Source: Patescibacteria group bacterium
GTDB lineage: Bacteria; Patescibacteriota; Minisyncoccia; Phycocordibacterales; PALSA-1337
Direction of reading: 5' to 3'
Assembly: GCA_040388415.1 (NCBI GenBank)
Contig: JAZKBV010000001.1
Location: 138,369-202,368 of the forward strand
DNA length: 64,000 nucleotides
Part shown: positions 1-17,204 of the stretch, piece by piece
Position numbering within the stretch: the first letter of the stretch is position 1
Layout: each line of letters opens with the position of its first letter
Program-made: the position numbers and the translations under genes
Notes under the pieces: model-generated
Seen by the model: the letters and a program-made list of their open reading frames with translations, nothing else
Told to the model about the DNA's origin: nothing
The model's database searches: none

Positions 1-951
1 CCTGTCGACATAAGCTCAGGCATCGATCCTTCTGTCCGTTTTATTGGTTCTCATATCAGCGTGTTGAAGCCGGAATTAATCGGTGGTTCGATTCCTGCTC
101 CTGGTGAATATATCGTTCAGGACTGTATGAGGGCAAAAAATTTAAAAGAATTATTTAATGACGCTTCTTCTCCTCAATGGGGGTCAACTTTCACGAGCAT
201 GGGCGCGCTTGTTCCTTATGAGCGTCTAGATGAACTTGTTTCTGAAACTTTGATCTTTTTTGAAAAGATACTTAATGTTAAAAATGAAGATATCAAGATA
301 TCTGTCTCATCTCAGGATCAAGATCTCGTGTCCGCTATCGCAAAAAGCCTTTCGTCGGAATCTTTGGAAGTCGATATGCAGCCGAATTCATACTACAGGC
401 ATCAGATTGGTGTAGAGGGCATCATTGGACGTAATTTTAATCTTGCAATAAGAAATAAAGTCGGCGGAGATTTTTCTGATGTAGGAAATATTATTGTGCT
501 GGAAGATACTGAGAAAAAGCTAGGTGCAGAGTTGGCCCTTGGATCATCAGTGATGCTAAAGCAGATGTATGGTCTAGAACATGTCAATGACTGTTATCCG
601 TTAACTGGGATAGATATTGAAAATAAAACAATAAAAAGGAAATTTGAGGACTGCATTATAGTGAGCATTTCTTTGTTCAATGAAGGGTTAGAGCCAAGAG
701 CAGCAGATAATAAAGGCAGAATCTTACGCTCGTATGTGAGAGCACTAAGTTATTTTAGGTCGAAAGAGAATATGTCATTAGAAAGCCTAGCTGAAATCAT
801 GGCTCGCTTTGAGTCAAAGCGTTATCCGGATAAAAAAGACAGCATCGTTCCGAGTATCGTAGAGTATCTTCGCTCATATGAAGAAATGCTCTTGAGTGAA
901 AAGATATCAACTGCTGAGGATAAAATAATTGCAGCTGTATTAAAGAAGTGA
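1..951 (+). CDS. hypothetical protein, 5'-partial (frame open to window start)
   Basis: ORF 61..951 (296 aa, GTG at 61) has no in-frame stop back to nt 1, so the protein probably continues upstream of the window. No motif recognised. Confidence 0.45.
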   Translation, partial: PVDISSGIDPSVRFIGSHISVLKPELIGGSIPAPGEYIVQDCMRAKNLKELFNDASSPQWGSTFTSMGALVPYERLDELVSETLIFFEKILNVKNEDIKISVSSQDQDLVSAIAKSLSSESLEVDMQPNSYYRHQIGVEGIIGRNFNLAIRNKVGGDFSDVGNIIVLEDTEKKLGAELALGSSVMLKQMYGLEHVNDCYPLTGIDIENKTIKRKFEDCIIVSISLFNEGLEPRAADNKGRILRSYVRALSYFRSKENMSLESLAEIMARFESKRYPDKKDSIVPSIVEYLRSYEEMLLSEKISTAEDKIIAAVLKK

Positions 952-963
952 TAGTCTAAAAAT

Positions 964-1944
964 ATGAAGATTCCTGCAAAACTAAAAAAAGGGTCACATA
1001 TCAGAATCATCGCACCATCAAGAAGCATGGGTCTTTTAAGTCCTGAGTCGAAGACTGAAGCTGTAAAAAGGCTTGAAGAATACGGGTTTGTTTTAAGCTA
1101 CGGAAAGCATGTGAATGAAATAGATGAATTTAGTTCCTCTTCTGTCGCTTCGCGAGTCGCAGATATCCATGAAGCATTTGCTGATAAATCAGTAGATGGT
1201 ATTTTAACTGTTATTGGCGGTTATAATTCGAACCAGCTTCTCGATCATCTTGATTATGATCTATTAGCAAAAAATCCAAAAATATTTTGTGGATTTTCAG
1301 ATATAACAGCGCTTAGCAATGCTATCACCGAAAAATCAAAATTTATCACTTATACAGGGCCGCACTTTTCCAGCTGGGCAATCAAGCATGGTTTTGAATA
1401 TTCTATGGAATATTTTGCCAAGTGTTGCATGTCTAGTGAACCGTATGAGCTTTTGCCTTCAGAAGTTTGGAGCGATGATCCTTGGTTCTTGGATCAAGAG
1501 AAAAGACAGTTCGTCAACAATGAGGGCTATTGGGTCATAAATGAGGGTAATGCAACTGGAAGAACTGTAGGTTCCCATGTTCGGTGCGTAAGTGCTCTTC
1601 AAGGGACCAAGTATTGGCCGTCTTTTAAAGGTGCCATCCTTCTTATGGAGGAAGATTCTGAGGTTAATCCGCAGATTTTTGATCGATTATTGCAGTCGTT
1701 TATACAACAACCAGATTTTTCTGGCGTGAAAGGCATTTTGATCGGCCGTTTTCAGCGGGACTCAAAGATGACAAAAGAGCTTTTGACTAAAATTATATCA
1801 ACTAAGCCAGAATTAAAGGGGGTACCTGTTATTGCAAATATCAATTTTGGCCATACGCTGCCGCTCTCCACGTTGCCGATCGGCGGAGAGATTCAAATGC
1901 TTGCTGAAAAGGGTAAGGCGCAGATCATTGTGACTATGCATTGA
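964..1944 (+). CDS. S66-family serine peptidase (LD-carboxypeptidase LdcA / microcin-C immunity MccF-like)
   Basis: 326 aa. Shows the S66 hallmarks: N-terminal 'IRIIAPS', nucleophile motif 'GFSDITAL', and a C-terminal His/Glu region. Confidence 0.8.
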   Translation: MKIPAKLKKGSHIRIIAPSRSMGLLSPESKTEAVKRLEEYGFVLSYGKHVNEIDEFSSSSVASRVADIHEAFADKSVDGILTVIGGYNSNQLLDHLDYDLLAKNPKIFCGFSDITALSNAITEKSKFITYTGPHFSSWAIKHGFEYSMEYFAKCCMSSEPYELLPSEVWSDDPWFLDQEKRQFVNNEGYWVINEGNATGRTVGSHVRCVSALQGTKYWPSFKGAILLMEEDSEVNPQIFDRLLQSFIQQPDFSGVKGILIGRFQRDSKMTKELLTKIISTKPELKGVPVIANINFGHTLPLSTLPIGGEIQMLAEKGKAQIIVTMH

Positions 1945-1994
1945 TCAATAAAAAAAGTGGGTTGGATAAATCCAACCCACTTGTGCATTTTTCT

Positions 1995-3395
1995 CTAAGC
2001 CTTTAGTTTCGCATCAATATATGCACCCAACTGATCGAGACTTACGCGCTCTTGGCGCATATCGTCTCGATTCCGGATAGTGACCTGCTTTTCCGAAAGG
2101 GTATCATAGTCAACCGTGATGCAATATGGCGTCCCGATTTCGTCTTGACGACGATAGCGTTTTCCGATGTTGCCGCTGTCATCAAACTCGCAGATGTGCC
2201 GCTCACGCAAGTCCTCGTATATTTTACGGGCAACCTGCACAAGCTCTGGACGATTTCTGACAAGAGGGAAGACGGCTACTTTGACAGGTGCCATTTTGGG
2301 GGTGAATTTTAGAACGGTCCGCGTCTCACCCTCAATTTCCTCTTCGTGATAGGCTTCACACAGTATCGCCAGGAATGTTCTGCCGACGCCAACTGACGAT
2401 TCGATAATGTGAGGCGTGTAGCGTTCCGTGGTGCGCTGATCAATGTAGCTCAAATCGGTTCCCGAATGGGTTGTGTGTTGTGTCAGGTCATAATCGCCAC
2501 GGGCGTGTATGCCTTCAAGTTCACTAAAACCAAACGGGAAACGATATTCAATGTCGTATGCTTCCTTTGCGTAGAACACAAGTTTTTCATGTTTGTGCCA
2601 CTGCAAGTTTGAGCTACTGATACCGATCGTCCGATAGTATTCCCAGCGCGCCTGCCGCAGTTTTTCGTATTCGACCATCTCCTGGTCAGGGTGAGTAAAA
2701 TACTGCATTTCCATCTGCTCGAATTCTCGAGTTCTGAAAATAAACTGCCGGGCGGTGATCTCGTTGCGGAACGCTTTTCCGATCTGAGCGATCCCGAAGG
2801 GGATTTTAACCCGATTTGCTGCCAAGACGTTCTTGTAGTTCACGTAGATTCCTTGGCATGTTTCTCCGCGGAGATACACCGGGTCCTTGTTGACGTCCCC
2901 AGTGAAATTTCCAAGGTTTGACTTGACCAAGAGGTTAAATTTCTTTACTTCCGTAAAGTTATTTTTGCCACAAGTAGGGCAGACAATCTTCGCTTTATTT
3001 TCTTGAAACAAAGCGTTGATTTCAGCCACATCCATCTTTTCATCGGCGATGACGCCGATAGTGGCAAGCAAATGGTCCACACGGATGCGTCCATTGCATT
3101 CCTTGCATTCAGCAACCGGATCGGCAAAACCTTTGACGTGTCCGCTCGCTTCCCAAATGCGCGGGCTCATGAAGATGCCTGAGTCCAAGCCGACAATATT
3201 GTCCTGCAGTTGAACCATAGCTCTCCACCACTCGCGCTTTACGGCATTTGCAAGCGCGACGCCGTAATGACCGTAGTCATACACAGCGGCAAATCCGCCG
3301 TATATCTCCGAAGACGGAAAGACGAACCCGCGACGCTTGCAAAACGATACGATCTTGCTGAGTGAAGTGGCTTCATCACTGTTTTTTTGAGTCAT
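1995..3395 (-). CDS. glyQS: glycine--tRNA ligase (dimeric class II, GlyQS type)
   Basis: 466 aa with full-length similarity pattern to GlyRS. The N-terminus 'FVFPSSEIYGG' and class II motifs are present. Confidence 0.9.
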   Translation of the reverse strand: MTQKNSDEATSLSKIVSFCKRRGFVFPSSEIYGGFAAVYDYGHYGVALANAVKREWWRAMVQLQDNIVGLDSGIFMSPRIWEASGHVKGFADPVAECKECNGRIRVDHLLATIGVIADEKMDVAEINALFQENKAKIVCPTCGKNNFTEVKKFNLLVKSNLGNFTGDVNKDPVYLRGETCQGIYVNYKNVLAANRVKIPFGIAQIGKAFRNEITARQFIFRTREFEQMEMQYFTHPDQEMVEYEKLRQARWEYYRTIGISSSNLQWHKHEKLVFYAKEAYDIEYRFPFGFSELEGIHARGDYDLTQHTTHSGTDLSYIDQRTTERYTPHIIESSVGVGRTFLAILCEAYHEEEIEGETRTVLKFTPKMAPVKVAVFPLVRNRPELVQVARKIYEDLRERHICEFDDSGNIGKRYRRQDEIGTPYCITVDYDTLSEKQVTIRNRDDMRQERVSLDQLGAYIDAKLKA

Positions 3396-3495
3396 AAACT
3401 ATCCTTTCATGTTTTGTGCATATGTTGTTTTAAATGTGCTGCACTTGATTTTTAAACTATCATAATAATGGTAACTAGTCAATGTACCTCTCGCT

Positions 3496-4284
3496 CTATT
3501 TTTTCTGGCTAATCACCAAAAAAAGAAACTTACGTTTAGTAAAAAACCGTTCAAAAAATATCGTGAATATTTGTATGAATATTTTAGGTGTCTCAACAAA
3601 TAAAGGGCTGCCGAGGTTATATACCTTAGCAGTGTGAAGCCCGGATCCTAATTGTTTTGCCGCGCTTGAAAGCATGTCTTCTATATCCTTGGGTCCGTAT
3701 ATTTTTTCAGTATCGAGCCTATATCCAGGGATGTGTTTCAGTATTTTTTTAAATCGAGGGCGAGCCAACAGCTCAGCCTTTTTTATGGGGAGAGAATTGA
3801 AATTAGGGATAGCGATTCCTATGTGTCCGCCGATTTTGGTTACGCGCAGCATTTCTTTTAGAATCTGAATAACAAGTTCTTTATCGTAGTGTTCAATTGT
3901 TCCTATGTTCCAAGTCAAATCAAAATTATTATCAGGAAAAGGCATCGAGAACATGTTTCCTTCAACATACGAGACTTTTTTACAACCATGTATCGTTGCT
4001 AATTTTTCTGCCAGTCTAAGTCCTTCAGTAGAAATATCCAGCAATGTTATATTTTTATTCGACAAAGATAATAAAGTCGCTTTTCCAGACCCGCAACCAG
4101 CTTCGAGGATCGATGCATTTGCAGGTATTGATATCGAGTTTACACAATCTCTGATTTGTTCGTAATAGTATCTCCACCAATAGGAAGAAAATTTTTCAGT
4201 AGATTCTCTTGCCAGCTCTTCGGAAAATATTTTATTCCAAGTCCGTTTTTCATGCTCTAAAGCCGCCTTAATTTTTTCCTGCAT
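3496..4284 (-). CDS. class I SAM-dependent methyltransferase
   Basis: Motif I 'ILEAGCGSGKATL' with an acidic post-I 'LLDIS'. The ORF track gives 3496..4395. An internal ATG at 4284 (MQEKIKAALE) removes a 100-bp overlap with the upstream gene and leaves an 11-bp gap, so the two genes look operonic. Confidence 0.75.
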   Translation of the reverse strand: MQEKIKAALEHEKRTWNKIFSEELARESTEKFSSYWWRYYYEQIRDCVNSISIPANASILEAGCGSGKATLLSLSNKNITLLDISTEGLRLAEKLATIHGCKKVSYVEGNMFSMPFPDNNFDLTWNIGTIEHYDKELVIQILKEMLRVTKIGGHIGIAIPNFNSLPIKKAELLARPRFKKILKHIPGYRLDTEKIYGPKDIEDMLSSAAKQLGSGLHTAKVYNLGSPLFVETPKIFIQIFTIFFERFFTKRKFLFLVISQKK

Positions 4285-4294
4285 ATTAATATCG

Positions 4295-5443
4295 TTATGG
4301 TTTCGGCAGATGTTCTCCTCGTGGAATATGCACGGCTTCCCATATATACGGCAGTTTAAGCAGCCACTGAACATAGCGTTGCCATCCCAACCCAAACCCC
4401 GCCGTCGCTTTGTAGTGTTTATAGTCTCTTGTTTTTAGGTAAGGCTCGTAATCCTCAAGCGGCAGATTGAACACTCGTGCTTTTTCAGCTAGCACAGCCG
4501 GTTCGCTGATTCGTACGCCTGACCCAATGACTTCACGGTAGCCCATAAGCACGATGTCAGCATTTTCAGCGATCGATATCCCATCCGTATTTTTTTTAAG
4601 CACATTATGATAAAAGGGGATCTGCAAAATGGGAAAATCTGTAACGGCAACATTTTTACCTAGTAATTCAGTAAGCCTAATCTCCTCCCATCCGCCAAAA
4701 TGCTTAAGTGAAAATTCTTTATAGCGCTCATCTTTTGTATCCGCATAGAGTATCTCCATTGCCTCTTTGAAAGGGATGGTAGATAGATTTTTCTTCTTGA
4801 AAGCATGCTTTAGCTCGCCTATGTCATTTGAGGTTAAAAAATATTCCAAATTCTCTATATTATTTTTTAGCAAATATAAAGTGATATAGTCTAGAATCCC
4901 GTAAGCAATATCAAGATTTTCTTTAAAATCCACCTTTCCTTCAAACTCAACATGCTGGAATTCTGATAAATGCGAGTAGTCGGCTTTTTCTTTCCTGAAA
5001 GAATTATAAATAGAAAAGACTCGATCTACTTTTTTAATGAGAAGTCTTAGTTCTAGATAGAATTGCGAGCTTTCAGATAGGAATGCTTTTTTTGAATTAT
5101 TGAACCATGATATGTCTACAGGCAGGGCGTCAGTGGTGTAATCGAGCGTTTTTCCGGCATATATTTCTCCTGGAGATGAAATCATCATGGTGGTTAGCGG
5201 AAGATTGCACCACTCGGTTTGATGTTTCTTAAAATATTCAGTTACGGCATAAAATATCGCAGTATCTATTTTATGTAAGTGAAAATAGTGCTTGCTAGAA
5301 ACTATCTCATCCATTCTTTTTTCGATGAGATCCAAGTCGAATTGCTTCGAGAGAACATTCTCGATTTTTTTATAGCGCTTGTTTCCTTTATATTCGATAA
5401 TGCGCTTGCCGTCTTTTATTTTTGCAGAATATGGTCCTAACAT
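4295..5443 (-). CDS. class IIb aminoacyl-tRNA-synthetase catalytic-core paralog without anticodon-binding domain (AsnA/AS-AR/EpmA-like amino-acid ligase)
   Basis: 382 aa. Motif 1-like region starts about 50 aa from the N-terminus. Motif 2 is 'FRKEKADYSHLSEFQHVEFE'. The class IIb C-terminal block is 'VTDFP..PFY...ADIVLMGYREVIGSGVRISEP..GFGLGWQRYVQWLL...HIPRGE'. There is no N-terminal OB-fold anticodon-binding domain. Confidence 0.7.
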   Translation of the reverse strand: MLGPYSAKIKDGKRIIEYKGNKRYKKIENVLSKQFDLDLIEKRMDEIVSSKHYFHLHKIDTAIFYAVTEYFKKHQTEWCNLPLTTMMISSPGEIYAGKTLDYTTDALPVDISWFNNSKKAFLSESSQFYLELRLLIKKVDRVFSIYNSFRKEKADYSHLSEFQHVEFEGKVDFKENLDIAYGILDYITLYLLKNNIENLEYFLTSNDIGELKHAFKKKNLSTIPFKEAMEILYADTKDERYKEFSLKHFGGWEEIRLTELLGKNVAVTDFPILQIPFYHNVLKKNTDGISIAENADIVLMGYREVIGSGVRISEPAVLAEKARVFNLPLEDYEPYLKTRDYKHYKATAGFGLGWQRYVQWLLKLPYIWEAVHIPRGEHLPKP

Positions 5444-5559
5444 TGTTTGTGTGCCTATAGACTAGCACAATCTGTTTTTTATACAACAATTGGTAATATG
5501 TCAATACCGGTCATATACAACACCAATTAATATAATGCTATCATCTAGCCATATGAACT
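5444..5559. promoter_or_regulatory. divergent promoter region with two ~20-nt direct repeats
   Basis: 'TTATACAACAATTGGTAATAT' (~5478-5498) and 'CATATACAACACCAATTAATAT' (~5512-5533). The region lies between divergently oriented operons. Confidence 0.4.
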
Positions 5560-6561
5560 GTGGATCACGATACGGCATATTTTCTTAACATGTTTTCATT
5601 ATCTGAGCTAAAGAATGAGTTCTTACTCATCAAAGAATCTTCCTACGAGGGAATAAAGGGAGTTATGGTATTTGATTCAGGTATACCAGGACCATGCCTC
5701 GGCATCACCATTAATACCCACGGCAATGAACCAAGCGGTTTAGCTGCTTTGGGATATTTTCGAAAAGATGATTTGGTCAAAAGCCTCATCAGTGGACGCG
5801 TTATGTTTGTTATAAATAATATTCAAGCGTGCGAGGCCTATTTTAAAGCTCTTGAAATAGAAAATGTATCTGAAAGAGAGACTGCAAAGCTTAAGTCTCG
5901 ATTTTGTGACGTAAATATGAATCGCTTACCAACGAACACGCTTGAACTTTCCGGTGACAAGCGTTACGAGATTCTTCGTGCACAAGAGTTGAGACAAGTG
6001 TGGGAACGGTTTGATATTGCATTTGATGTGCATAGCACTAGAAGCGAATCGGAACCAATGATCATTGCGTTGGGCAATGTGCAAAGCACTTTGTATGCCG
6101 GTTTCCCCATAGGTATAATTATTCGCAATATCGAGAATGTTCAATCAGGAAAACCTGCGTCTGCATTTTATGGTAGGGCAGGTGAAACACCTGTTTTCGC
6201 TATCGAGACCGGCTCTCATGAAAAAGAAACTTCATTTCAGACGGCGATGACATGCATATCTATTCTCTTGCAAAATCTCGGCATGCTTCCGAAAACTTCA
6301 CTGCTAGTGTCAAAAACTTATAAGGAATATTTGATCGTTGATTCAATGTTTTTTCCTGATAATTCGTACGAATTAACTAAAGCATTTAATATGTTTGAAT
6401 TGTGTGAAAAAGGGCAGATCATCGCTCAAGGCAATGGTCCTGCTATCGTAGCGCCTGAGACTGGTTGCCTGTTATTTGTCCCGCCTGGGAAGAAGCCGAC
6501 AGCTCCGCTTGATGAGGAGGTATTATTTTTTTCTGCCCCACCTCGAATAATCAAGGCATAG
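5560..6561 (+). CDS. succinylglutamate desuccinylase/aspartoacylase (AstE/AspA) family zinc deacylase
   Basis: 333 aa. Has the 'INTHGNEPSG' zinc-binding signature of the AstE_AspA family. Confidence 0.75.
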   Translation: MDHDTAYFLNMFSLSELKNEFLLIKESSYEGIKGVMVFDSGIPGPCLGITINTHGNEPSGLAALGYFRKDDLVKSLISGRVMFVINNIQACEAYFKALEIENVSERETAKLKSRFCDVNMNRLPTNTLELSGDKRYEILRAQELRQVWERFDIAFDVHSTRSESEPMIIALGNVQSTLYAGFPIGIIIRNIENVQSGKPASAFYGRAGETPVFAIETGSHEKETSFQTAMTCISILLQNLGMLPKTSLLVSKTYKEYLIVDSMFFPDNSYELTKAFNMFELCEKGQIIAQGNGPAIVAPETGCLLFVPPGKKPTAPLDEEVLFFSAPPRIIKA

Positions 6562-6564
6562 TTT

Positions 6565-7275
6565 ATGGTTAAATTTTTAATTTTACAAAAATGCTATAAT
6601 ACAGCCACCATGAAACTGTATTTCCTTTCGCCGTTCATCCTTCAAAAGATCATTTGGATACCGACTCGTTTCTCACTCTTTTTCTTTGGACACTGGAAGA
6701 TATCAGGCATGGACAACCTCAAAGGCATCCCTGCGCCAGTCATATTTGCATGCAACCATACGAGCGAGATCGATCCTTTTTTTGTACCGGCGTCGCTTCC
6801 ATTTTTATCGCGATTCGCACCTACTTTTTATACGTCTCGTGAAAGCAAGTTTTATACCAACTCGGGTTGGCGCCGCTATATCTATGGGGGATTTTTCTTC
6901 AAGATGTGGGGGTCATATCCAGTGCATGTTGGCTTGAATGATTATGCAAAATCAATGACGCACCATATCGAGATCATCCGAGATGGAGGCAGTCTCTGCA
7001 TGTTTCCTGAGGGGCGCATCACTCCCGATGGGACGATTCAAGCCGCCAAGGGCGGAGTAGCATACCTCTCGCAGGCAACTGGCGCGCTCATCGTTCCTGT
7101 CCGTTTTGAAGGAGCTTTCGGCGTATCTTTGAAAGACCTTTTCTTACGTCGTCGTCACATATCGATTGTATATGGCAAACCGATGAAGCCGACTGACTAT
7201 CTTGGATCTGACCCGATGATCGATGAGCTCAAAAATTATGCCGCCGTGGTGATGGCAGAAGTGGGGAAGTTGTAA
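6565..7275 (+). CDS. plsC: lysophospholipid acyltransferase family protein (PlsC-like)
   Basis: HX4D motif 'ACNHTSEIDPF' and 'FPEGRITPDG'. The start lies 4 nt after the preceding stop, consistent with an operon. Confidence 0.8.
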   Translation: MVKFLILQKCYNTATMKLYFLSPFILQKIIWIPTRFSLFFFGHWKISGMDNLKGIPAPVIFACNHTSEIDPFFVPASLPFLSRFAPTFYTSRESKFYTNSGWRRYIYGGFFFKMWGSYPVHVGLNDYAKSMTHHIEIIRDGGSLCMFPEGRITPDGTIQAAKGGVAYLSQATGALIVPVRFEGAFGVSLKDLFLRRRHISIVYGKPMKPTDYLGSDPMIDELKNYAAVVMAEVGKL

Positions 7276-7334
7276 ACGTTTCTCGTCGCGAACGTGATAT
7301 AATTACCGCGGTTGAAAAACTAATTTCTACTTTT

Positions 7335-8954
7335 ATGATCAGTCAAGAAGCAATACAAAAAATTTTGGGCATAGGTGAACAGGTTGATGTTGACCCGAAA
7401 GATATGGCACGTACGCTCACGATTACTTTTTTTCCTGAAAAAGGCCATATATATAGCAAGAAAGTAAAAGATTTCAGCGACTTGCTCCGCCAGGCGTTGA
7501 TAGATCTGGATGTTAAAGTCATTTCTTATGATGAGTCGTTAGAAACCGTGGCGATCTCTAAGATAGCCAAAAGATTTTTCAAGATATTAGGGAATAATAT
7601 CCTGTTCGCGCTCTATGAAGCTTTGCGGATCTCGCATAATTATCATTACATCAATCTTCTTGCCCTTCAGAACCTTTTGAAGCGTCGCAGGATAAAGAAA
7701 GGAATATCAGTGGTGGCTTTAGGAGAAGGGAAAGTCTATAACCTTCCGATCGACTATACTTCGAGCTTTACCCGAAGCTCAGTCATCACTCTTCTGGATA
7801 GGCCTGCTGATGTCGATGAGACATCGGGCTTCCAGAAGCATTTTGATACAGCGATGGATTCTTTTTCGTACCATATGACACAGATCGTTATACTCGTTGA
7901 TGAAAAGAAATGGATCCTCTATAACTTCAACGCTTCACATCCAGTGTATCCGATCGACTCTCATTTCAAAGAAAATATCCTGCACGCTCTCGTACCGAAA
8001 GTCGCCGCGCCCATCCGTCCGCATCGTATGCCTGATTTTATCATTGATCAAAAGACCTTTGATCCTGAAGCGCCGGAATATGCGACTGCTGTGCAAGATT
8101 TGATAGATGGAGGAATGGCTTTCGAAGGGACTAATCTTTATCCAAAAGGAAAGAAGATGGCTGATCTGCCATTTCGAAATAAATTCTATCGTTGGATAGG
8201 CAGTATCCATCTCGACCATAGAAATGGTATGAGCTATGGTTTTTTGGCGCGACAGCTTCCAACTGAGCTTCCTGCGCTCGAGCCATATAGCCAGGCTTAT
8301 GCAAGCGAAGGCGATTATTTTATCCGCGACGGACATATATATCTCAAACTCGATCTGGCACAAGGAAAGTTTATTCTGCAGGTCCCACCGATCTGGGTTA
8401 TGACGCAGCGATCTGGTGCTGACAAGACTCATATAGACATACATAAGGACCTCCTTATGCTGGGTTTGGTGGATGGCAAGATGCGCATGCGCACACCAGA
8501 TGGACTGAAGCTCACTGCCGATTATAAGCCTTCATTCGATACTAAAGTCATCCTCGCACATGCAGTCGGCAATGCGATCACAGCTGCGATCATGAATCAT
8601 TTCCAGTCTAACGCCGAGTATGTGAAAAATGTCCGCGAAAATGGCCTTGCGATCGCGCATTGGCACGGGTATTTCCATCCGCAACATATTCCAAAAGGCT
8701 GGTATCACCATGGCTATGGCAATCCGCATGTAGCATGTTCGACGCCGCAATCAGCGATTTTTGCTTTGGATGGAAAGCTCAACACATTTGAGAAGGCCAT
8801 GAAAGAAGGCGCAGATTATCATGGCGACATCCATATAGAGCCGCATCATGGTACAAACATCGTATTTCCTTCAGTCAAGGAGCTTGGTCGGCTGCTCATG
8901 GAAAATCCTGAAGCTTCTGTTCTTGGAAATAAGTATCTTGGGTATTATAATTAA
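7335..8954 (+). CDS. hypothetical protein, 539 aa, His-rich C-terminal region
   Basis: Long ORF with no recognised family. The C-terminus reads 'HWHGYFHPQHIPKGWYHHGYGNPH...HGDIHIEPHHG'. Only a 7-nt gap separates it from the downstream histidine kinase. Confidence 0.6.
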   Translation: MISQEAIQKILGIGEQVDVDPKDMARTLTITFFPEKGHIYSKKVKDFSDLLRQALIDLDVKVISYDESLETVAISKIAKRFFKILGNNILFALYEALRISHNYHYINLLALQNLLKRRRIKKGISVVALGEGKVYNLPIDYTSSFTRSSVITLLDRPADVDETSGFQKHFDTAMDSFSYHMTQIVILVDEKKWILYNFNASHPVYPIDSHFKENILHALVPKVAAPIRPHRMPDFIIDQKTFDPEAPEYATAVQDLIDGGMAFEGTNLYPKGKKMADLPFRNKFYRWIGSIHLDHRNGMSYGFLARQLPTELPALEPYSQAYASEGDYFIRDGHIYLKLDLAQGKFILQVPPIWVMTQRSGADKTHIDIHKDLLMLGLVDGKMRMRTPDGLKLTADYKPSFDTKVILAHAVGNAITAAIMNHFQSNAEYVKNVRENGLAIAHWHGYFHPQHIPKGWYHHGYGNPHVACSTPQSAIFALDGKLNTFEKAMKEGADYHGDIHIEPHHGTNIVFPSVKELGRLLMENPEASVLGNKYLGYYN

Positions 8955-8960
8955 GCAGTC

Positions 8961-10577
8961 ATGCTCTCTATCTTCAGTTACTACAGCCTCTCTCTGTTTT
9001 TGGGAGGAATCGTAGCTCTCTTCTCGGGCATATTTGTATTTCTCAATAACTCCAAGAAAATGGAAAGCATCGTTTGGTTGCTTTTGACCATTTCGACGGC
9101 GATCTGGAGCTTTGGATACTACATCATGATCATTACTCCGGACAAGCACGTTGCTTGGATCAGCGATGTCATTTTGCATATCGGCGCATCATTCATACCT
9201 TTCTTCTATCTTTTCTTTATAATAGCCATTACGAATGTCTTCGGGCAGTATAAGAAACTCATTTACTGCCTGTCTCCAATAGCGATCTTTTTTGTGCTTG
9301 TGACGCCAAGCTCATTATTTGTTACTGATGTATATCAAAAAGGACCATTCAGTTATGCTCCTAATGCTGGGATACTTTATACGCCATTCACGGCTTATTT
9401 CTTTATAGTAGTTATAATCGCTTTGGCCATATTGCTCATTCAGATCAAGAAATCTGAGCGCAAAGAGGCGCTTCGCCTAAAATTCATCTTCGGGTCGTCG
9501 ATCTTCGGTTTCATTGGCGGCAGCAGCGTTTTCTTTCTAACGTTCAATGTCTTCGTACCGCCATTTCCTGTCATACTATTCGCTTTTTATCCGATGATCA
9601 TCGCATATGCAGTGCTACGCTATAATCTTTTTGACGTAAGAATAATCACGGCAGAATTGCTCACTGCGACGATTTGGATCACTCTTTTGTTCCGTACAGT
9701 TCTTTCAAATAATGGCACCGACCAGGTCATTAGCGGTATCATTCTCGCGATTACAGTCTTGTTCGGTATCTGGCTTGTGCGAAATGTATACCACGAGATC
9801 ACTCAACGCGAAAAGATCGAGAAGCTCGCCAAAGACCTCGAATCTGCCAATGTCCGCCTGACTGAGCTCGATCGCCAAAAGTCAGAGTTCGTCTCATTTG
9901 CGACGCATCAGCTCCGCGCGCCACTCACCGCAATGAAAGGCTATGCCTCGATGATCCTCGATGGCGATATGGGTAAGCTGGCCGATGAGGCCAAGCTCGG
10001 CGTATCGCGCATATACGACTCAGCCCAGACGCTCACCAACATCGTCGACGATTATCTCAACATCACACGCATCGAGCTCGGTACGATGAAGTATGCTTTT
10101 GAGACGATCAACTGGCGCACCCTTATCGATGATATCCTCGCTGAGCTCAAGCCGAATATCGAAAAGTCGAAGCTCGCTTTCTCATTCAATGTTCAAGAAG
10201 AGAATATGGATTATCGCATCACTGCTGACCGCGACAAGTTCAAACAAGTCATCGCCAACCTCATCGACAACTCGATGAAATATACGCCGAAGGGTACAGT
10301 GGCGCTGTCGCTTTCGTTCGACCGCGCGCGTCGCAAGTACGTCTTTATGATCAAAGATACCGGCATCGGCATCGCTCCTGAAGTCTTGCCGCATCTCTTC
10401 GCTAAGTGGAGCCGTGCAGGTAATGCTAACAAGACGAATATCAAAGGCACTGGTCTCGGCCTTTTCGTGGCAAAAGAGATCATTACTGCGCATCATGGCG
10501 AAGTCCGTGCAGAATCTCCTGGCGAAGGGAAGGGCTCAACATTCATCGTGGAGATGGAGCCATTTGGGAAAATGTAA
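8961..10577 (+). CDS. sensor histidine kinase, multi-pass membrane
   Basis: About 6 N-terminal TM helices. HisKA H-box 'ATHQLRAPLTAM'. HATPase N/G boxes 'NLIDNSMKYT', 'DTGIGI' and 'GTGLGL'. Confidence 0.85.
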   Translation: MLSIFSYYSLSLFLGGIVALFSGIFVFLNNSKKMESIVWLLLTISTAIWSFGYYIMIITPDKHVAWISDVILHIGASFIPFFYLFFIIAITNVFGQYKKLIYCLSPIAIFFVLVTPSSLFVTDVYQKGPFSYAPNAGILYTPFTAYFFIVVIIALAILLIQIKKSERKEALRLKFIFGSSIFGFIGGSSVFFLTFNVFVPPFPVILFAFYPMIIAYAVLRYNLFDVRIITAELLTATIWITLLFRTVLSNNGTDQVISGIILAITVLFGIWLVRNVYHEITQREKIEKLAKDLESANVRLTELDRQKSEFVSFATHQLRAPLTAMKGYASMILDGDMGKLADEAKLGVSRIYDSAQTLTNIVDDYLNITRIELGTMKYAFETINWRTLIDDILAELKPNIEKSKLAFSFNVQEENMDYRITADRDKFKQVIANLIDNSMKYTPKGTVALSLSFDRARRKYVFMIKDTGIGIAPEVLPHLFAKWSRAGNANKTNIKGTGLGLFVAKEIITAHHGEVRAESPGEGKGSTFIVEMEPFGKM

Positions 10578-10654: not shown

Positions 10655-10682
10655 ATCAAAAAGCCCCGAACAGTGCGTTCGG
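10655..10682. terminator. intrinsic terminator hairpin (A-tract/hairpin, serves convergent genes)
   Basis: 'aaaaaGCCCCGAACagtgcGTTCGGGGtgtgtt'. Confidence 0.6.
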
Positions 10683-10688
10683 GGTGTG

Positions 10689-11207
10689 TTAGGTGCTCTC
10701 CAATGGAGGTTTGGTCGGACATATCTCGCGTCGGCTGCTCGTTTCAGCATAGTGAGGCGCACCTGGTGGCTCTTCAGACGTCTCTCTACAAGCTGGAGGA
10801 CAAGAGAATCCTTTCTGTCCACGCCTCCATCGTCGAGCTGAAGCAGGTGGCGGAGATGGCGGTTCAGTTTGAGCTGGAGGATTCAAGATGCTTTCCATGC
10901 CCAGCTGCCGACGAGCGATGGTTGCTTTAACAGATCGCTTATCAGACTCCTTTTTCTTCTTTTGCAAAAAGGCTGTCCGATAACGTGCTCGCCTTTCTGT
11001 CGGCGTCTCTAGCTTTTTTTCAGTCCGAGGAACGTCAAGCAAGTTTTCGCTCGGTTTGGCCGGCTGTTGAAACGGCGGCTGAGTAGGAATATTCCACACT
11101 ATCGGCTTTTGGGTGCGGTCGCGTCGGGCGGCCTTTCCGATAAAACTAAAAACTAACAGGGCTCCGATCACGATCACGAGCCCGCAGATATTTTTTACAA
11201 TATTCAT
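10689..11207 (-). CDS. hypothetical membrane-anchored, Pro/Lys-rich low-complexity protein
   Basis: N-terminal TM helix 'ICGLVIVIGALLVFSFIG', then a disordered Pro-rich tail. The stop codon abuts the hairpin at 10655-10682. The C-terminal third overlaps plus-strand ORF 10673..10930, so the true extent is uncertain. Confidence 0.45.
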   Translation of the reverse strand: MNIVKNICGLVIVIGALLVFSFIGKAARRDRTQKPIVWNIPTQPPFQQPAKPSENLLDVPRTEKKLETPTERRARYRTAFLQKKKKESDKRSVKATIARRQLGMESILNPPAQTEPPSPPPASARRWRRGQKGFSCPPACRETSEEPPGAPHYAETSSRREICPTKPPLEST

Positions 11208-12556: not shown

Positions 12557-13669
12557 ATGACCACACTCCTCATCATTCTCATTGTCTTAGCGGTTTTGAT
12601 AATTGTCTTTTTGGGAGTGCTGTTGTTGCGCCAGAAAAACGCCGCTTTCGGCGGGGCGAACAATCAACAAAATACTCAGCAAAACGAAGGGCTCAACCTC
12701 ATCCTCCAGCAGATCAATGAAATGTCGCGCACAGTTGATGCTAAGATGGGCGATCTCAGCAAAACGGTGGATGCCAAGATCAATGATGGCAATCGCTCGA
12801 TGCAAGAGTCTATGCGCGGACAGCTTTCGGAGTCGTCAAAACTCATCAAGGAAGTCACTCAGGGTTTGACCAAGCTCGATGAGACCAACCGTCAGGTGGT
12901 TTCTTTTGCCGACCAGTTACAGAGTCTTCAGGATATCCTCAAAAATCCAAAACAACGCGGTATCCTCGGCGAGTATTATCTGGAAACATTGCTCAAGAAC
13001 GTCTTGGCACCAGGGCAGTATCAGATGCAATATGCGTTCAAGAATGGCGAGATCGTAGATGCGGCTGTCTTCGTAAAAGATAAGGTCATTCCTATAGATT
13101 CGAAGTTTTCATTGGAAAATTACAATAAACTCGTTGAAGAAAAGAATCCGGCGGAAAAAGAAAAATTGGAAAAAGCTTTTGTGAATGATTTGAAATTACG
13201 CATCCAGGAAACAGCGAAGTATGTCCGCCCTTCTGAAAATACGATGGATTTTGCCTTTATGTTCATTCCTCACGAGGCTATCTACTATGATCTCTTGGTT
13301 AATAAGATTGGCGCAGCAGTTGGGGAGACTGACAATTTGATCCAGCGCGCAGCAAGCAAGTATAAGGTCATCATTGTATCGCCAACTTCTTTCTTGGCGT
13401 ATTTACAGACGGTGTTGCAGGGCCTCAAGGCTATGCAGATCGAAGAGACCGCAAAGGACATCGTCAAGCATGTCGAACAGCTCGGTACACATCTCAAAAA
13501 GTATGAGGAGTATCATACAAAGCTTGGTACATCACTTGGCACAGTTATCAATCATTACAATAACTCCGGCAAGGAGCTCAAGAAGGTAGACAAAGATATT
13601 ATGCGCATTGCAGGTGAGGCGCCAGGCATAGAAGTGGCTGTTTTGGAGGGGCCAGAAAGCGATGAGTGA
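12557..13669 (+). CDS. rmuC: DNA recombination protein RmuC
   Basis: N-terminal TM, central coiled coil, and a C-terminal RmuC domain 'FMFIPHEAIYYDLL'. Confidence 0.8.
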   Translation: MTTLLIILIVLAVLIIVFLGVLLLRQKNAAFGGANNQQNTQQNEGLNLILQQINEMSRTVDAKMGDLSKTVDAKINDGNRSMQESMRGQLSESSKLIKEVTQGLTKLDETNRQVVSFADQLQSLQDILKNPKQRGILGEYYLETLLKNVLAPGQYQMQYAFKNGEIVDAAVFVKDKVIPIDSKFSLENYNKLVEEKNPAEKEKLEKAFVNDLKLRIQETAKYVRPSENTMDFAFMFIPHEAIYYDLLVNKIGAAVGETDNLIQRAASKYKVIIVSPTSFLAYLQTVLQGLKAMQIEETAKDIVKHVEQLGTHLKKYEEYHTKLGTSLGTVINHYNNSGKELKKVDKDIMRIAGEAPGIEVAVLEGPESDE

Positions 13670-13709
13670 TGCTATTGAGTCACGAGTAGTAGGGTGTTAT
13701 CATAGTGTA

Positions 13710-16700
13710 ATGAAACGTAACTGCATGTATAGGTATCTATTTTTACTCATTACGTCACTCTCGATTGTTTTGCTCACCGGAAAAAATGCTTTTGCTGATG
13801 TTTTGTCACCAGGCACGATATACAGTTGTGGTGAAATAGCGAGTGCGGGCGTGTACACACTTAGTTCTACCAGTACATTTTCTGTAGCTCCCGGCAACGA
13901 TTGCATCAGAGTTACGTCAGGGGGAACAGTGGATGATACTGTTATTGATGGCAACGGGGCAACTATTACTGGTAATGTGAATGGTGATGGTGTAAACCCT
14001 GGTGATAGTGGTTTTAATTTTACGTTGGAGAATGCCACAGTCATTGGAACTACGAGTACAAGTGGAATTGATTTGGCAGATTGTAGTACCTATGGTGGTT
14101 TAGGTGGCATTGTAAAAATATTAAACTCCACAACCACTGCACTTGTCGCCAATGGTGGAAAAATTGAGACAGTGACGGCGTGTAGTCCAACACCAAGTCA
14201 GTATTATGGTGGAGATGGAGGTTTTTTTACTATCTCAACATCTACGTTCACGACAATAAGCACTGTCGGTGCTGATGGTGGAACAGGGGGGTATGGAGGA
14301 CGTATAGTTATTTTCAATTCAGACAGCTCTCTTGCAAGTAGCACAATCTCACTCGGGGGTGGACACGGGACTGATCTTTCGGTGGCTGGCTATCTTGAGG
14401 TTCACTATACTGTATTTGATTATGTGAATTACCTTTTTTCTGCGCTCAATTGGCTCTATCTATATGGTCCCGATAATCTTCCTGGTGAAATTTTCAATAA
14501 TACCCCATTCGCTGGAGGCTATCTCTACACTCCACCAGGTGACACCACTTGTTCGAGTAGTTTAATAACCGCAGGAATCTATACCCTCACCGGTGATGTA
14601 ACAGGAGATTGCACTATTGCTGGTAACGGCGTGATCCTCAATGGTCAGGGTCACACCATAAATGGGAATGTGCATGGTGACGGATCAGGTTTTGATACTT
14701 CAGGTTACACTTTTACTTTAGAAAATGTAACCGTCACAGGAACAACTTCGGCAACTCTTGGCGCTGGAAATATTACCGTCAACAACTCCACAACCTCTGT
14801 TATAACCGTGAATAATGAAGGAGATCGTTTTGCGGGAAATGTTGGGGAGATACATTTGATAAATTCAACTTCGACTTCACTGTATGCGAGTGCTTCCAGA
14901 TACGGAGCGACGTGTGGTCTCTGTACTGTGCAAAGCGGTCATGCGGGAGTTATTGATGTCACGAACTCGGTATTCACGCATATATATGCCGATAGTATTA
15001 TCGGTGCGAGCAGTACCGGGGGGACGATAACCATCACCGGCACAAATGTCGATGTTTCGAGTACGACTGTGTCAGCGACAGGTTTGGTAAATGGTATTCT
15101 GACTATCAATTATGCGACTTTGGTAAATGACAATTTTACCCTCTCTGCACTGAGCGATCTTATCCTTAATGGGCCGAGTAATTTACCAGGTGATCTGGGT
15201 TCATTTGGCGGCGGAGTGCTTTCTCTTGATAACACGATTTATAATGCATCACAATGTAGTAATCTCGGCATCTCACAGACGTATTTTCTAGCCAATAATA
15301 TTACGGGAAATTGTGTGATCAAGGCGAATAATGTGGTAATCGATGGTGCAGGGCAATGGACCGTCAATGGAAGCATTACTGGTGACGCTACAGTTGTAGG
15401 TAATAATGGTTATAATTTTACGTTACAAAATATTACCGTAACTGGACCAGTTACCTCAAATGGTTCTATCGTCTATCTTTCTCAAGTAAGTCAGACAGCT
15501 GGAGCGGGGGGTTCTATCACTATCGATCATGCCACGACGAGCGATATAACTTCGCTGGGTGCAGCTCCATGTGCTCATTTCAAGATTGGTAATCCGTGTG
15601 GTACTGGCGGTAATGTGATTGTGAGAGATTCTTATGTGGGAAATATTAATGTTGATGGTGGCAGTAGCCAGAGTTCTCAGCTTTCAGGACAGGGCGGAAC
15701 GATCGTTATTTCGACTTCAACCACAGCCTCGCTCAGTGCCAATGGTGGAAACGGTGATACGCAAGGTGGTAATGGGGGGTCTGTAACTGTTACAAATTCT
15801 CTCGAAAATATCGCTAGTAGTACAATAAGTGCTCGTGGAGGAAACTCTCTCCTATGTGGAAGTGGAGGAAATGGCGGTTCGATCAATTTATTGAATTCAA
15901 CATATACAGGTTCGATAATCAACACTGCCGGAAATGATGCTTCAGATTGTAGCTATTCATATTCCGGTTCATCAGGACATAGTGGGTCAATACAGGTGCT
16001 TGGCCAGTATAGCCAAGTTGTAAGCACGGTTGCTCCAACCGAACCAGCCCCCGCTCTCATACCAACACCTGTCGTAGTTCCAAAAACCCCAGCCGTGTCA
16101 GGTTCGAGCGGTTCATTCATCACACCACCTATCAGTGATTCAGTACCAGTTGAAACCATCCCAACATCACCAATACCTCCACGCACATTTGGATCAGTTG
16201 CTGCTCAAGCCATCCAACAAGTAACCAAAGTTGCAACCGCCGTCGCCAACTCTCCAGCCGCTAAAACAGTCCAAACCGTCGGCTTCTTCGGTGGCTTGGC
16301 AGCATCAGTCGCCTTCTACACTGATAGTGCCTTTGCGACACCAGTTGCCGCATCGGAAGTCCTCCTTATCCCGGTGCGCCTCTGGGGACTCCTCCTTGCA
16401 GGCTTAGGTATACGTAAGCGTTCACGTCCGTGGGGCACCGTCTATGACAGCGTGACCAAACAACCGATCGACCCTGCTTTTGTCACAGCACGTGATGCCT
16501 CAGGCAAGGTAGTGGCTGAATCATTCACTGATATCGATGGTAGATACGGCTTCCTCCTTCCTGACGGCGTATACTACATCTCTGCACAAAAGACGAACTA
16601 TGAATTCCCATCGAAGAAGATGGTGGGCAAGCAGAATGACGAGCTCTACAGTGATCTCTACTTTGGCGAGTCTGTCATCATTCACAGCGGTCAGGTCCTC

Positions 16701-17204
16701 GACAAGAATATCCCCATGGATCAAAAGAACTTCGACTGGAATGAATATGCCAAGAAGAAGCGTAATGCACTCTTGTTCCATTCAAAATATGAAAAGCCGT
16801 GGGCTGTCGTGAGTAACTATGTCTATGGCATCGGCCTTGCCATCTCCGTCATCGCGACTGTTATCCATCCCACAACCTACAATATTGTCATTCTCGTTTC
16901 GTATGCGGTAGTCCTCATCTCATTCAATTTCACCAGTCGAAAGAAAAAGCTGGGATCGATCATCGACAAGGAGACTCATGACCCGTTGTCCTATGCGATT
17001 TTCCGTGTGACTGGATCTGACCATCAAACTGTTCTTCGTTCAGGCGCCTGTGATGTCCTTGGCCGATTCTACTGTATCGTGCCAAAAGGCGAGTGTTATA
17101 TTGATATCGAGAAAAAGAACGTTGACGGCACCTATGTGAAAGTCTATGAATCAGCGCTACTCAACAACAAGACGGGCTTCATTAACAGCGATTTGGTGGT
17201 CTAG
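13710..17204 (+). CDS. giant surface protein with three ~230-aa tandem modules, Gly-rich and Pro/Thr-rich stalk, TM helices and two CarboxypepD_reg-like domains
   Basis: Signal peptide 'MYRYLFLLITSLSIVLLTGKNAFA'. Three repeated modules recognisable by '...NGQGHTINGNVHGDG...FTLENVTVTGTTS'. C-terminal TM segments. 'DASGKVVAESFTDIDGRYGF' and 'IFRVTGSDHQTVLRSGACDVLGRFY' are Ig-like carboxypeptidase-regulatory-type folds. Confidence 0.75.
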   Translation: MKRNCMYRYLFLLITSLSIVLLTGKNAFADVLSPGTIYSCGEIASAGVYTLSSTSTFSVAPGNDCIRVTSGGTVDDTVIDGNGATITGNVNGDGVNPGDSGFNFTLENATVIGTTSTSGIDLADCSTYGGLGGIVKILNSTTTALVANGGKIETVTACSPTPSQYYGGDGGFFTISTSTFTTISTVGADGGTGGYGGRIVIFNSDSSLASSTISLGGGHGTDLSVAGYLEVHYTVFDYVNYLFSALNWLYLYGPDNLPGEIFNNTPFAGGYLYTPPGDTTCSSSLITAGIYTLTGDVTGDCTIAGNGVILNGQGHTINGNVHGDGSGFDTSGYTFTLENVTVTGTTSATLGAGNITVNNSTTSVITVNNEGDRFAGNVGEIHLINSTSTSLYASASRYGATCGLCTVQSGHAGVIDVTNSVFTHIYADSIIGASSTGGTITITGTNVDVSSTTVSATGLVNGILTINYATLVNDNFTLSALSDLILNGPSNLPGDLGSFGGGVLSLDNTIYNASQCSNLGISQTYFLANNITGNCVIKANNVVIDGAGQWTVNGSITGDATVVGNNGYNFTLQNITVTGPVTSNGSIVYLSQVSQTAGAGGSITIDHATTSDITSLGAAPCAHFKIGNPCGTGGNVIVRDSYVGNINVDGGSSQSSQLSGQGGTIVISTSTTASLSANGGNGDTQGGNGGSVTVTNSLENIASSTISARGGNSLLCGSGGNGGSINLLNSTYTGSIINTAGNDASDCSYSYSGSSGHSGSIQVLGQYSQVVSTVAPTEPAPALIPTPVVVPKTPAVSGSSGSFITPPISDSVPVETIPTSPIPPRTFGSVAAQAIQQVTKVATAVANSPAAKTVQTVGFFGGLAASVAFYTDSAFATPVAASEVLLIPVRLWGLLLAGLGIRKRSRPWGTVYDSVTKQPIDPAFVTARDASGKVVAESFTDIDGRYGFLLPDGVYYISAQKTNYEFPSKKMVGKQNDELYSDLYFGESVIIHSGQVLDKNIPMDQKNFDWNEYAKKKRNALLFHSKYEKPWAVVSNYVYGIGLAISVIATVIHPTTYNIVILVSYAVVLISFNFTSRKKKLGSIIDKETHDPLSYAIFRVTGSDHQTVLRSGACDVLGRFYCIVPKGECYIDIEKKNVDGTYVKVYESALLNNKTGFINSDLVV

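Follow-up and report, generated by a model that had tools for sequence, protein, structure and literature searches.

The closest described counterparts of the locus considered here come from several enzyme and signaling systems. Among the class II aldolase/adducin enzymes, which include RhaD, FucA, and AraD of E. coli as well as MtnB and the YgbL/OtnC-type proteins, FucA and RhaD bind dihydroxyacetone phosphate (DHAP) at zinc. The E. coli enzyme Aas consists of an acyltransferase domain and an acyl-ACP (acyl carrier protein) synthetase domain, and the eukaryotic acyl-DHAP route employs a DHAP acyltransferase, an acyl-DHAP reductase of the short-chain dehydrogenase/reductase (SDR) type, and AGPAT. 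The heterocyst-glycolipid-like hgl clusters (HglB, HglT, DevBCA) contain a terminal chain-release enzyme. Among the sensor kinases, BceS, LiaS, and DesK possess 2-5 transmembrane helices, and their response regulators are encoded next to them, with DesK sensing the state of the membrane; the hybrid kinases CqsS and LuxN feed into a phosphorelay, CqsA is a pyridoxal phosphate (PLP) enzyme, and LuxM is an acyl-homoserine lactone synthase. The window analyzed here is a stretch of 64,000 nucleotides of the Patescibacteria contig JAZKBV010000001.1, in which four packed plus-strand genes code for an AstE/AspA-family metallo-deacylase homologue, a PlsC-like membrane acyltransferase, a 539-aa protein of an uncharacterized two-domain family, referred to as U539, and an orphan multi-pass histidine kinase. 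The last three of these genes make up a conserved unit, and U539 is tentatively regarded as representing a new family of zinc enzymes that would handle fatty-acyl chains and be coupled in Patescibacteria to a membrane-sensing kinase, a reading to which we give slightly less than an even chance.

The gene order was compared over 80 species-representative U539 loci, whose open reading frames (ORFs) were searched with the proteins of the window; for Patescibacteria, the kinase spacing was counted over 63 species-level loci and the linkage to PlsC over 57. A 7TM kinase gene overlaps the 3' end of the U539 gene or starts at most 23 nt past its stop codon (-59 to +23 nt) in 60 of the 63 loci, and the kinase-linked loci span U539 identities of 37-65%. 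Among the 57 loci, 26 have a PlsC-like gene at most 100 nt upstream of U539, and 41 have one at a distance of up to 3 kb. In nine loci (L006, L007, L040, L048, L049, L050, L053, L055, and L084), another 7TM kinase gene of divergent orientation lies on the opposite side of U539, between it and PlsC, and L026 harbors a tandem run of three downstream HisKA_7TM kinase copies. The closest relative (65% identity) is flanked by kinases on both sides, with neither a PlsC nor an AstE gene. In many genomes the module is embedded in a synteny block of housekeeping genes with the order GrpE-DnaK-DnaJ-PlsC-U539-kinase-TrpRS-AsxRS (the latter two being aminoacyl-tRNA synthetases). This block is broken in the window as well as in L084, while the U539-kinase pairing is kept in both. 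Because the trio is intact in the window even though the synteny block is broken, the PlsC-like acyltransferase, U539, and the 7TM kinase are regarded as the conserved unit.

The U539 gene (7335-8954, plus strand) encodes a protein which occurs in exactly this form in a Patescibacteria metagenome-assembled genome as 'hypothetical protein V4524_00725'. All of its 509 homologues are hypothetical by name; the best matches are mostly ~50% identical over the full length and come from sources labeled as Parcubacteria/Paceibacteria-type, where labels are given. With 215 representatives after 50% clustering among 1.84 billion proteins, the family is small, and it is spread over Patescibacteria and several other phyla. 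The first-pass annotation of this DNA had found no recognizable family for the protein, which holds at the level of sequence, as no matches were obtained in Pfam (E 0.01), NCBIfam, or the PDB (phmmer and two profile hmmsearches), but not at that of the predicted structure. An AlphaFold model built from 45 sequences (pLDDT 91.5, pTM 0.91) contains an N-terminal alpha/beta domain (aa 1-245; 7335-8069; pLDDT 85 if modeled separately), which yielded generic Rossmann-like matches but nothing significant in a Foldseek search of the PDB (best E 0.025, probability 0.14), and a C-terminal domain resembling class II aldolases and adducin (8181-8951). The structures ranked 1-13 by Foldseek for the U539 model all show the class II aldolase fold, with RhaD (2v2a; E 7.9e-4, probability 1.0, TM 0.46) as the top match and AraD (1jdi) and YgbL (6vop) as further ones, while HMPDdc (2z7b) and a class II aldolase domain from Thermoplasma (3m4r) are ranked lower. 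The C-terminal domain is thus predicted to adopt the fold common to the solved class II aldolase/adducin members, which represent the only consistent structural match of this half of the protein.

The conserved residues follow the same division. An alignment of 42 family members, reaching down to 22% identity, contains 18 invariant residues, all of them at or beyond residue 229; 17 are located within the C-terminal domain, and none is counted for the N-terminal domain. They comprise R296, S300, and G302 (8220-8243), S360, G361, and K364 (8409-8426), S400 and D402 in the block KPSFD (8526-8540), H442 and H444 in HWH (8658-8666), C468 (8736-8738), and E502, H505, and G506 in EPHHG (8838-8852), in addition to P229, P351, D372, and G460. 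The blocks RNGMS, RSG, KPSFD, HWH, and EPHHG are arranged in the same order as GNVS, PSG, KPSSD, HTH, and HSHG of E. coli AraD, and the FucA equivalents PSSE, HNH, and HHG share this order. D402, H442, H444, and H505 are ordered like D76, H95, H97, and H171 of AraD, so that an acidic residue, an HxH motif, and a distal histidine follow each other in both cases. Since the motif blocks also occur in comparable secondary-structure settings, as seen in the DSSP string of the model, these four residues are read as the metal site of the fold and represent a putative zinc site. The invariant Ser/Gly/Arg/Lys blocks may form phosphate loops and, because they occupy the corresponding positions, the substrate is probably a small carbonyl or hydroxy compound bearing a phosphate. 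The dense C-terminal His cluster described previously is real, and its suggested role in binding metal fits the modeled fold as far as the invariant H442, H444, and H505 are concerned; the conservation of H500 and H504 is limited to Patescibacteria, and the remaining histidines are lineage-specific. U539 also differs from the class II aldolases in several respects: it carries ~250 extra N-terminal residues forming a separate alpha/beta domain without a structural match, large insertions between the motif blocks, and the invariant Cys468, it shows no profile relationship to them, and its genes occur in a lipid or polyketide synthase (PKS) context rather than in one of sugar catabolism. A sequence-level assignment of U539 to the class II aldolases is unsupported by any profile method.

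As judged from gene neighborhoods, the fatty-acyl connection of the family is supported independently in other phyla. An SDR gene is found immediately upstream of the U539 homologue, often overlapping with it, in five Bacteroidota/Ignavibacteriota and related loci and nearby in two Rhodothermales-type loci, and a fatty-acid desaturase gene follows downstream on one contig. At the N-terminus of distant full-length members there is a TubC_N docking domain known from nonribosomal peptide synthetases and PKS, and a metagenome scan yielded 80 loci of this docking-domain subfamily. An ACP gene immediately precedes the homologue in 41 of 70 loci and lies within two genes in 47 of 70, while Pfa-type genes for KS/CLF, KR-DH, and PfaD are present upstream in 49 of 70. 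A KdsR-like SDR follows immediately downstream in 18 of 77 loci, with an NAD-dependent reductase at this place in others, and the clusters additionally contain a PapA/condensation-like acyltransferase, an MGDG-synthase-like glycosyltransferase, UDP-galactopyranose mutase (Glf), a methyltransferase, and ABC/HlyD exporters. By their gene content, these clusters look like assembly lines of a glycolipid type in which the U539 homologue stands after the last carrier protein. As in the hgl-like and Pfa-type clusters, reductases, a glycosyltransferase, and ABC/HlyD exporters then follow, and the docking-domain homologue takes the position usually held by a thioesterase or thioester reductase. In contrast to this subfamily, U539 of the window lacks a docking domain, and PKS genes are missing from its vicinity. 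A cluster type of this kind, built on either a Pfa-type PKS or a FAAL-ACP-PKS arrangement (FAAL, fatty-acyl-AMP ligase), is widespread and apparently undescribed (L088-L174, e.g., L088:1-12739, L117, and L120); no characterization of the U539 family or of the PKS-cluster enzyme and cluster type was found in the literature. In Pseudomonas huaxiensis, the docking-domain homologue WP_110970559.1 is encoded 4 nt after a fatty-acyl-AMP ligase (L091:7951-11854). Genes for huge RHS-repeat proteins flank this two-gene unit.

Within Patescibacteria, the recurrent partners of U539 are PlsC, a methyltransferase (11 loci), an SDR (5), and a FadD-type ligase (3). The latter, a long-chain acyl-CoA ligase, is encoded directly upstream of U539 in the deep Patescibacteria-type loci L054, L059, and L064, in the place otherwise taken by the acyltransferase; considered together, ligase and acyltransferase recall the two halves of Aas. 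The acyltransferase of the window (6565-7275, plus strand; 236 aa) belongs to the LPLAT family PF01553 (51.9 bits against a cut-off of 23, E 8.5e-14) and contains the HX4D motif as NHTSEID (aa 64-70), FPEGR (aa 147-151), and a hydrophobic N-terminus. The closest solved structure is PlsC of T. maritima (5KYM, E 1e-4), and the NCBIfam matches are partial ones to the Aas acyltransferase domain, which is the best, and to AGPAT, with scores of 38-45 bits against cut-offs of 103-1349; no OlsA model is among them. Aas itself differs from this system by having neither a U539-like component nor a dedicated kinase, and the window acyltransferase does not reach any equivalog cut-off.

The fold by itself would also be consistent with U539 being a conventional soluble member of the class II aldolase superfamily, namely an aldolase, epimerase, dehydratase, or decarboxylase which acts on a sugar phosphate and serves carbon metabolism or salvage, with the kinase acting as a transcriptional sensor or being a synteny neighbor and PlsC being incidental. 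The substrates of the characterized class II aldolase-fold matches are small phosphorylated sugars or small acids in every case and never lipids, the phosphate-loop-like invariant motifs suit such substrates, some of the neighbors outside Patescibacteria are carbohydrate genes (a RuBisCO-like protein and glycogen phosphorylase), and the location of the module inside a housekeeping block in many genomes would fit as well. This alternative is nevertheless considered unlikely, although it is the strongest of those discussed here, because the docking-domain subfamily directly follows an ACP in PKS lipid clusters at most of its loci, and the neighbors encountered repeatedly across five lineages include fatty-acyl ligases, SDRs, a desaturase, and PlsC. 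Moreover, the pairing with the kinase outlasts both rearrangements and kinase duplication, and the neighbors that recur or were scanned with Pfam did not include a sugar kinase, isomerase, or transporter.

The kinase (8961-10577, plus strand; 538 aa; Pfam HisKA_7TM, HisKA, and HATPase_c) consists of a HisKA_7TM region (aa 12-226) followed by two further hydrophobic segments (aa 229-276) and the catalytic part, and Pfam recognizes no PAS, GAF, or periplasmic domain in it. The H box with H316 (9906-9926), the N box (10266-10286), and the G1 (10356-10373) and G2 boxes (10446-10463) are at least 90% conserved among 55 orthologues, in which many of the transmembrane residues are conserved too. Judging from these features, the kinase is intact and its sensing is confined to the membrane; a regulator is not linked to it. 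The earlier observation that no response regulator is encoded next to it, and that the only receiver protein of the window lies 32 kb away, is borne out by a receiver HMM (hidden Markov model) built from E. coli CheY, CheB, CreB, ArcA, and PhoB together with the window receiver: a stand-alone receiver protein (42760-43320, minus strand; Pfam Response_reg, E 9e-14) is its sole match among the six-frame ORFs of the window, and no receiver is adjacent to the U539 kinase in any of the 80 related loci, with one within 7 kb in 3 of the 80. This receiver is CheY-like without an output domain, and its true start is likely the internal MKILIVDDD. It is a candidate partner of the kinase, and two-component control of the module is plausible. 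A description of the ligand of HisKA_7TM regions was not found in the literature.

In U539, the presence of the kinase goes along with an insertion of ~45 residues (aa 72-115; 7548-7679), which is hydrophobic, basic, and confidently predicted to be helical. Insertion and kinase neighbor are both present in 59 loci and both missing in 14, with three exceptions; in two of these, a kinase gene that overlaps or has been displaced accounts for the deviation. The insertion, along with the overlap of stop and start codons, suggests a physical or membrane-proximal coupling of U539 to the kinase, and it may serve in contacting the membrane or the kinase. In having only transmembrane helices in addition to its DHp/CA part, and a conserved neighboring gene which may supply the stimulus, the kinase resembles BceS-BceAB, LiaS-LiaF, and DesK. 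It differs from them by its HisKA_7TM region plus two hydrophobic segments and by the missing linked regulator, and the enzyme it is paired with is soluble or peripheral, whereas BceS and LiaS act with a transporter or a membrane protein.

Two further explanations start from this tight coupling. In the first, U539 would make a lipid-derived signal, either diffusible or borne by the membrane, from a fatty-acyl donor and a small phosphorylated precursor, and the adjacent kinase would be its receptor in communication between symbiont and host or among symbionts, as in the CqsA/CqsS and LuxM/LuxN pairs, where the gene of an acyl-donor enzyme is likewise located beside that of a multi-pass kinase without a soluble sensor domain. 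A kinase lacking extracytoplasmic and cytoplasmic sensor domains and conserving transmembrane residues would suit a hydrophobic ligand, and the very tight enzyme-then-kinase order, the expansion of kinase paralogues beside U539 (the second divergent copy in nine loci and the tandem in L026), and the acyl-linked contexts of the family agree with this proposal. We regard it as improbable, since U539 is unlike the known autoinducer synthases in Pfam and NCBIfam, having no PLP-dependent or LuxI/LuxM-type domain, the kinase is not a hybrid, carries no receiver domain, and has no phosphorelay nearby, the kinase-linked insertion suggests a physical association which a diffusible signal would not need, and the homologues outside Patescibacteria work without any kinase. 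In the second explanation, of the same low probability, U539 is a cytoplasmic co-sensor or 'trigger enzyme', which would bind a phosphorylated metabolite at its metal site and relay its state via the inserted helices, lipid chemistry being secondary or absent in Patescibacteria. The kinase without a sensor domain of its own, the co-occurrence of insertion and kinase, and the overlapping or few-nt gene spacing favor this role, as does the fact that intramembrane-sensing kinases commonly rely on accessory proteins (BceS-BceAB, LiaS-LiaF). It is opposed by the recurrence of PlsC, FadD-type ligase, SDR, and methyltransferase neighbors in Patescibacteria. In addition, the putative catalytic residues are all invariant there and the proteins are ~50% identical over 540 aa, which argues for retained catalysis.

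Several points weigh against regarding U539 as an enzyme of fatty-acyl metabolism with a class-II-aldolase-type site. The TM-score of the best structural match is only 0.46 and the root-mean-square deviation is large. In a Pfam scan up to E 10, PF00596 was met by a single one of 42 members (E 0.2), hhalign comparisons of two family alignments with E. coli FucA, AraD, and RhaD gave probabilities of 0.8% and 3.4% over a match of 20 residues which placed HWHG on the distal-His block, and the profile searches of the PDB yielded nothing linking the family to Aldolase_II. The fatty-acyl link is a case of guilt by association. An SDR near U539 is seen in only 5 Patescibacteria loci, in 3 of which a divergent upstream position was confirmed, no ACP was detected adjacent to U539 in Patescibacteria, and the neighbors in Rhodothermales/Balneolaceae show no pattern (ArgJ, rhomboid, RuBisCO-like protein, phosphorylase). 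Part of the PlsC linkage could be inherited housekeeping synteny. Finally, because the distribution of insertion and kinase follows the split between Patescibacteria and other lineages, it counts as one event, and the correlation amounts to a single clade-level contrast.

Taking U539 as a fatty-acyl-handling zinc enzyme coupled to the kinase, the following sequence of events may be envisaged. U539 would bind a metal together with a small phosphorylated substrate carrying a carbonyl or hydroxy group and join a fatty-acyl thioester to this polar partner, or process the two, possibly via Cys468. A ketoreductase and then a second acyltransferase would act on the product, with PlsC assuming the latter role in Patescibacteria, where the pathway may serve the building or remodeling of membrane lipids from scavenged material. 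What the kinase would read is either the state of U539 or its lipid, be it substrate or product, and it would signal to an unlinked receiver. A more specific version, quite improbable as it stands, is that U539 loads or condenses the fatty-acyl group onto a DHAP-like phosphorylated C3 unit at the metal site. The acyl donor would be ACP, CoA, or a scavenged lipid in this case, an SDR and a second acyltransferase of the PlsC or PapA type would complete the product, and the dedicated 7TM kinase would directly monitor U539 activity in Patescibacteria. The partners recurring around U539, namely an acyl donor system, an SDR, and a PlsC/AGPAT- or PapA-type acyltransferase, would match the steps of the acyl-DHAP route; the comparison is an analogy only, as U539 is unrelated to the GNPAT-type acyltransferases.

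The remaining genes at the locus do not belong to the conserved module. The AstE/AspA-family gene (5560-6561, plus strand; 333 aa) is the first of the operon here; its product matches PF24827 (AstE_AspA_cat) with 41.5 bits against a cut-off of 25 (E 1.4e-10) and contains the zinc motif as HGNE (aa 54-57) and DVHS (aa 156-159). It does not reach the NCBIfam equivalogs for aspartoacylase (35/180) or succinylglutamate desuccinylase (17.5/170), and a sequence search of the PDB gave no match. Pfam and NCBIfam agree with the domain calls made in the first-pass annotation for this gene as well as for the PlsC-like and the kinase gene. The ORF listing also confirms the packing of the four plus-strand genes, with intergenic spacers of 3, 59, and 6 nt; the gaps of 4 and 7 nt given before for the first and third are differences between start and end positions. 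The two genes reported as diverging from the operon are indeed present on the minus strand, coding for a paralogue of the catalytic core of asparaginyl-tRNA synthetase (AsnRS) without an anticodon domain (4295-5443; 382 aa) and an S-adenosylmethionine (SAM) methyltransferase (3496-4395), as assigned by Pfam and NCBIfam. They appear to be co-transcribed, and the best matches of the AsnRS-like core are AsnRS and the archaeal-type asparagine synthetase A, far under the equivalog cut-offs. In 11 Patescibacteria loci (L009, L010, L012, L013, L016, L018, L021, L034, L044, L046, and L060), the gene after the kinase codes for a SAM methyltransferase of ~230 aa (Methyltransf_25/11), several times at a gap of a few nt, which extends the module there to PlsC-U539-kinase-methyltransferase. 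With the methyltransferase of the window, this enzyme has no more than a generic class I similarity in common (26% identity).

In relatives, an AstE/AspA gene is present within 7 kb of U539 in 2 of the 80 loci and never within the operon, and the AsnRS-like paralogue has one partial similar copy (L024), all other matches being canonical AsnRS or aspartyl-tRNA synthetase (AspRS) of the housekeeping block. Of the gene arrangement proposed initially, only PlsC-U539-kinase is therefore kept, while the AstE/AspA gene and the AsnRS-like/methyltransferase pair are local additions. This bears directly on the function suggested at that time, according to which AstE, an OlsA-like PlsC, the His-rich protein, and an amino-acid-ligase paralogue would synthesize an N-acyl amino acid or aminoacyl lipid, controlled by the kinase via repeats in the shared promoter. 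The domain identities underlying this proposal are right, the repeats exist, and the four closely spaced genes do face the AsnRS-like/methyltransferase pair. However, as AstE and the AsnRS-like gene are unlinked to the module and no OlsB, MprF, or N-acyltransferase domain was found by Pfam among the genes at 61-10577, an OlsB-type gene included, the idea is unsupported. The similarity of the AsnRS-like protein to an AsnRS/AsnA-type core and the behavior of the repeats, which are matched by 2-8% of shuffles and absent from related loci, also speak against it, so that we consider it highly improbable. Gene order in relatives was the test named by the first-pass annotation itself, and by this test the proposal is largely refuted.

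The repeats are located in the divergent intergenic region of 116 nt (5444-5559), with the 20-nt copies TATACAACAATTGGTAATAT at 5480-5499 and TATACAACACCAATTAATAT at 5514-5533. They are present as sequence, with 15 of 20 positions identical, exact blocks of 8+1 and 5 nt, and a spacing of 34 nt, but their proposed role as a regulator binding site is without support. A pair of the same quality occurs in 2% of mononucleotide and 7.7% of first-order Markov shuffles of the region, and no copy of the motif was found in 94 related loci; for these reasons the repeats are not statistically compelling. Over the whole window, 5 matches with at most 2 mismatches compare with 1.5 expected, a number reached in 2 of 100 shuffles, and the three extra matches have 2 mismatches each and are located away from the shared promoter. 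A regulon motif is unsupported, the further window copies not being beyond chance. The repeats overlap with -10-like hexamers on both strands, and a promoter scan gave fewer consensus promoters than in shuffles. The 7-nt repeat cores AATTGGT and ACCAATT (5488-5494 and 5522-5528) are mutual reverse complements, so that identical flanks enclose an inverted core, and an ACCGGT palindrome lies between the repeats, which may be due to chance.

At the other end of the locus, a G+C-rich hairpin (10664-10684) with a T-run on its minus-strand side is located between the kinase gene and a convergent ORF (10689-11207, minus strand) and probably marks the end of the operon; no Rfam families were found in the region. 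Elsewhere in the window, a leucyl-tRNA synthetase of 1304 aa (35181-39095, plus strand) shows an unusual architecture, in which a NUDIX domain (aa 260-356, E 2e-23) and a Ser_hydrolase/alpha-beta hydrolase domain (aa 416-578, E 1e-10) are present as additions after the N-terminal catalytic half and before the editing domain. A probable surface protein of 1180 aa (13662-17204, plus strand) is highly repetitive and rich in Gly, Thr, Ser, and Asn, with an N-terminal hydrophobic segment and further ones at the C-terminus. The signature of a diversity-generating retroelement (bAvd and an RVT_1 reverse transcriptase; L001:16318-17647) is found ~7 kb downstream of the module in a related Patescibacteria genome.

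With respect to the components of the module, the LPLAT acyltransferase, the HisKA kinase, and the class-II-aldolase-like fold are of known kinds; undescribed are the U539 family as such, the way its domains are combined, its role in ACP docking, and the fact that it is paired with an orphan 7TM kinase. Candidate phyla radiation bacteria have fatty-acid-based membranes rich in lysolipids, and Patescibacteria lack fatty-acid synthesis, ACP, PlsX, and PlsB while keeping PlsY and PlsC (Probst et al., PMC7242380); machinery for lipid uptake or remodeling has not been identified in them (PMC11665869). The PlsC-U539-kinase locus is a concrete candidate for the handling of membrane lipids in Patescibacteria, with U539 usually encoded beside a member of the small set of lipid genes that these organisms have retained. 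The family also fills the unexplained position of the 'release enzyme' in glycolipid clusters of the polyunsaturated fatty acid synthase type, and its chemistry should be tractable without culturing a symbiont, because a homologue is present in a cultured Pseudomonas (WP_110970559.1). If the tight coupling of an enzyme to an orphan 7TM kinase is true, it would represent a new two-component wiring in minimal genomes. If, in addition, U539 were to form an acyl-DHAP-type product, this would constitute a third entry into glycerolipids, independent of PlsB and PlsX/PlsY, and would explain how product is off-loaded by Pfa-type synthases and how Patescibacteria rebuild phospholipids from host-derived material without PlsX, PlsB, and ACP.

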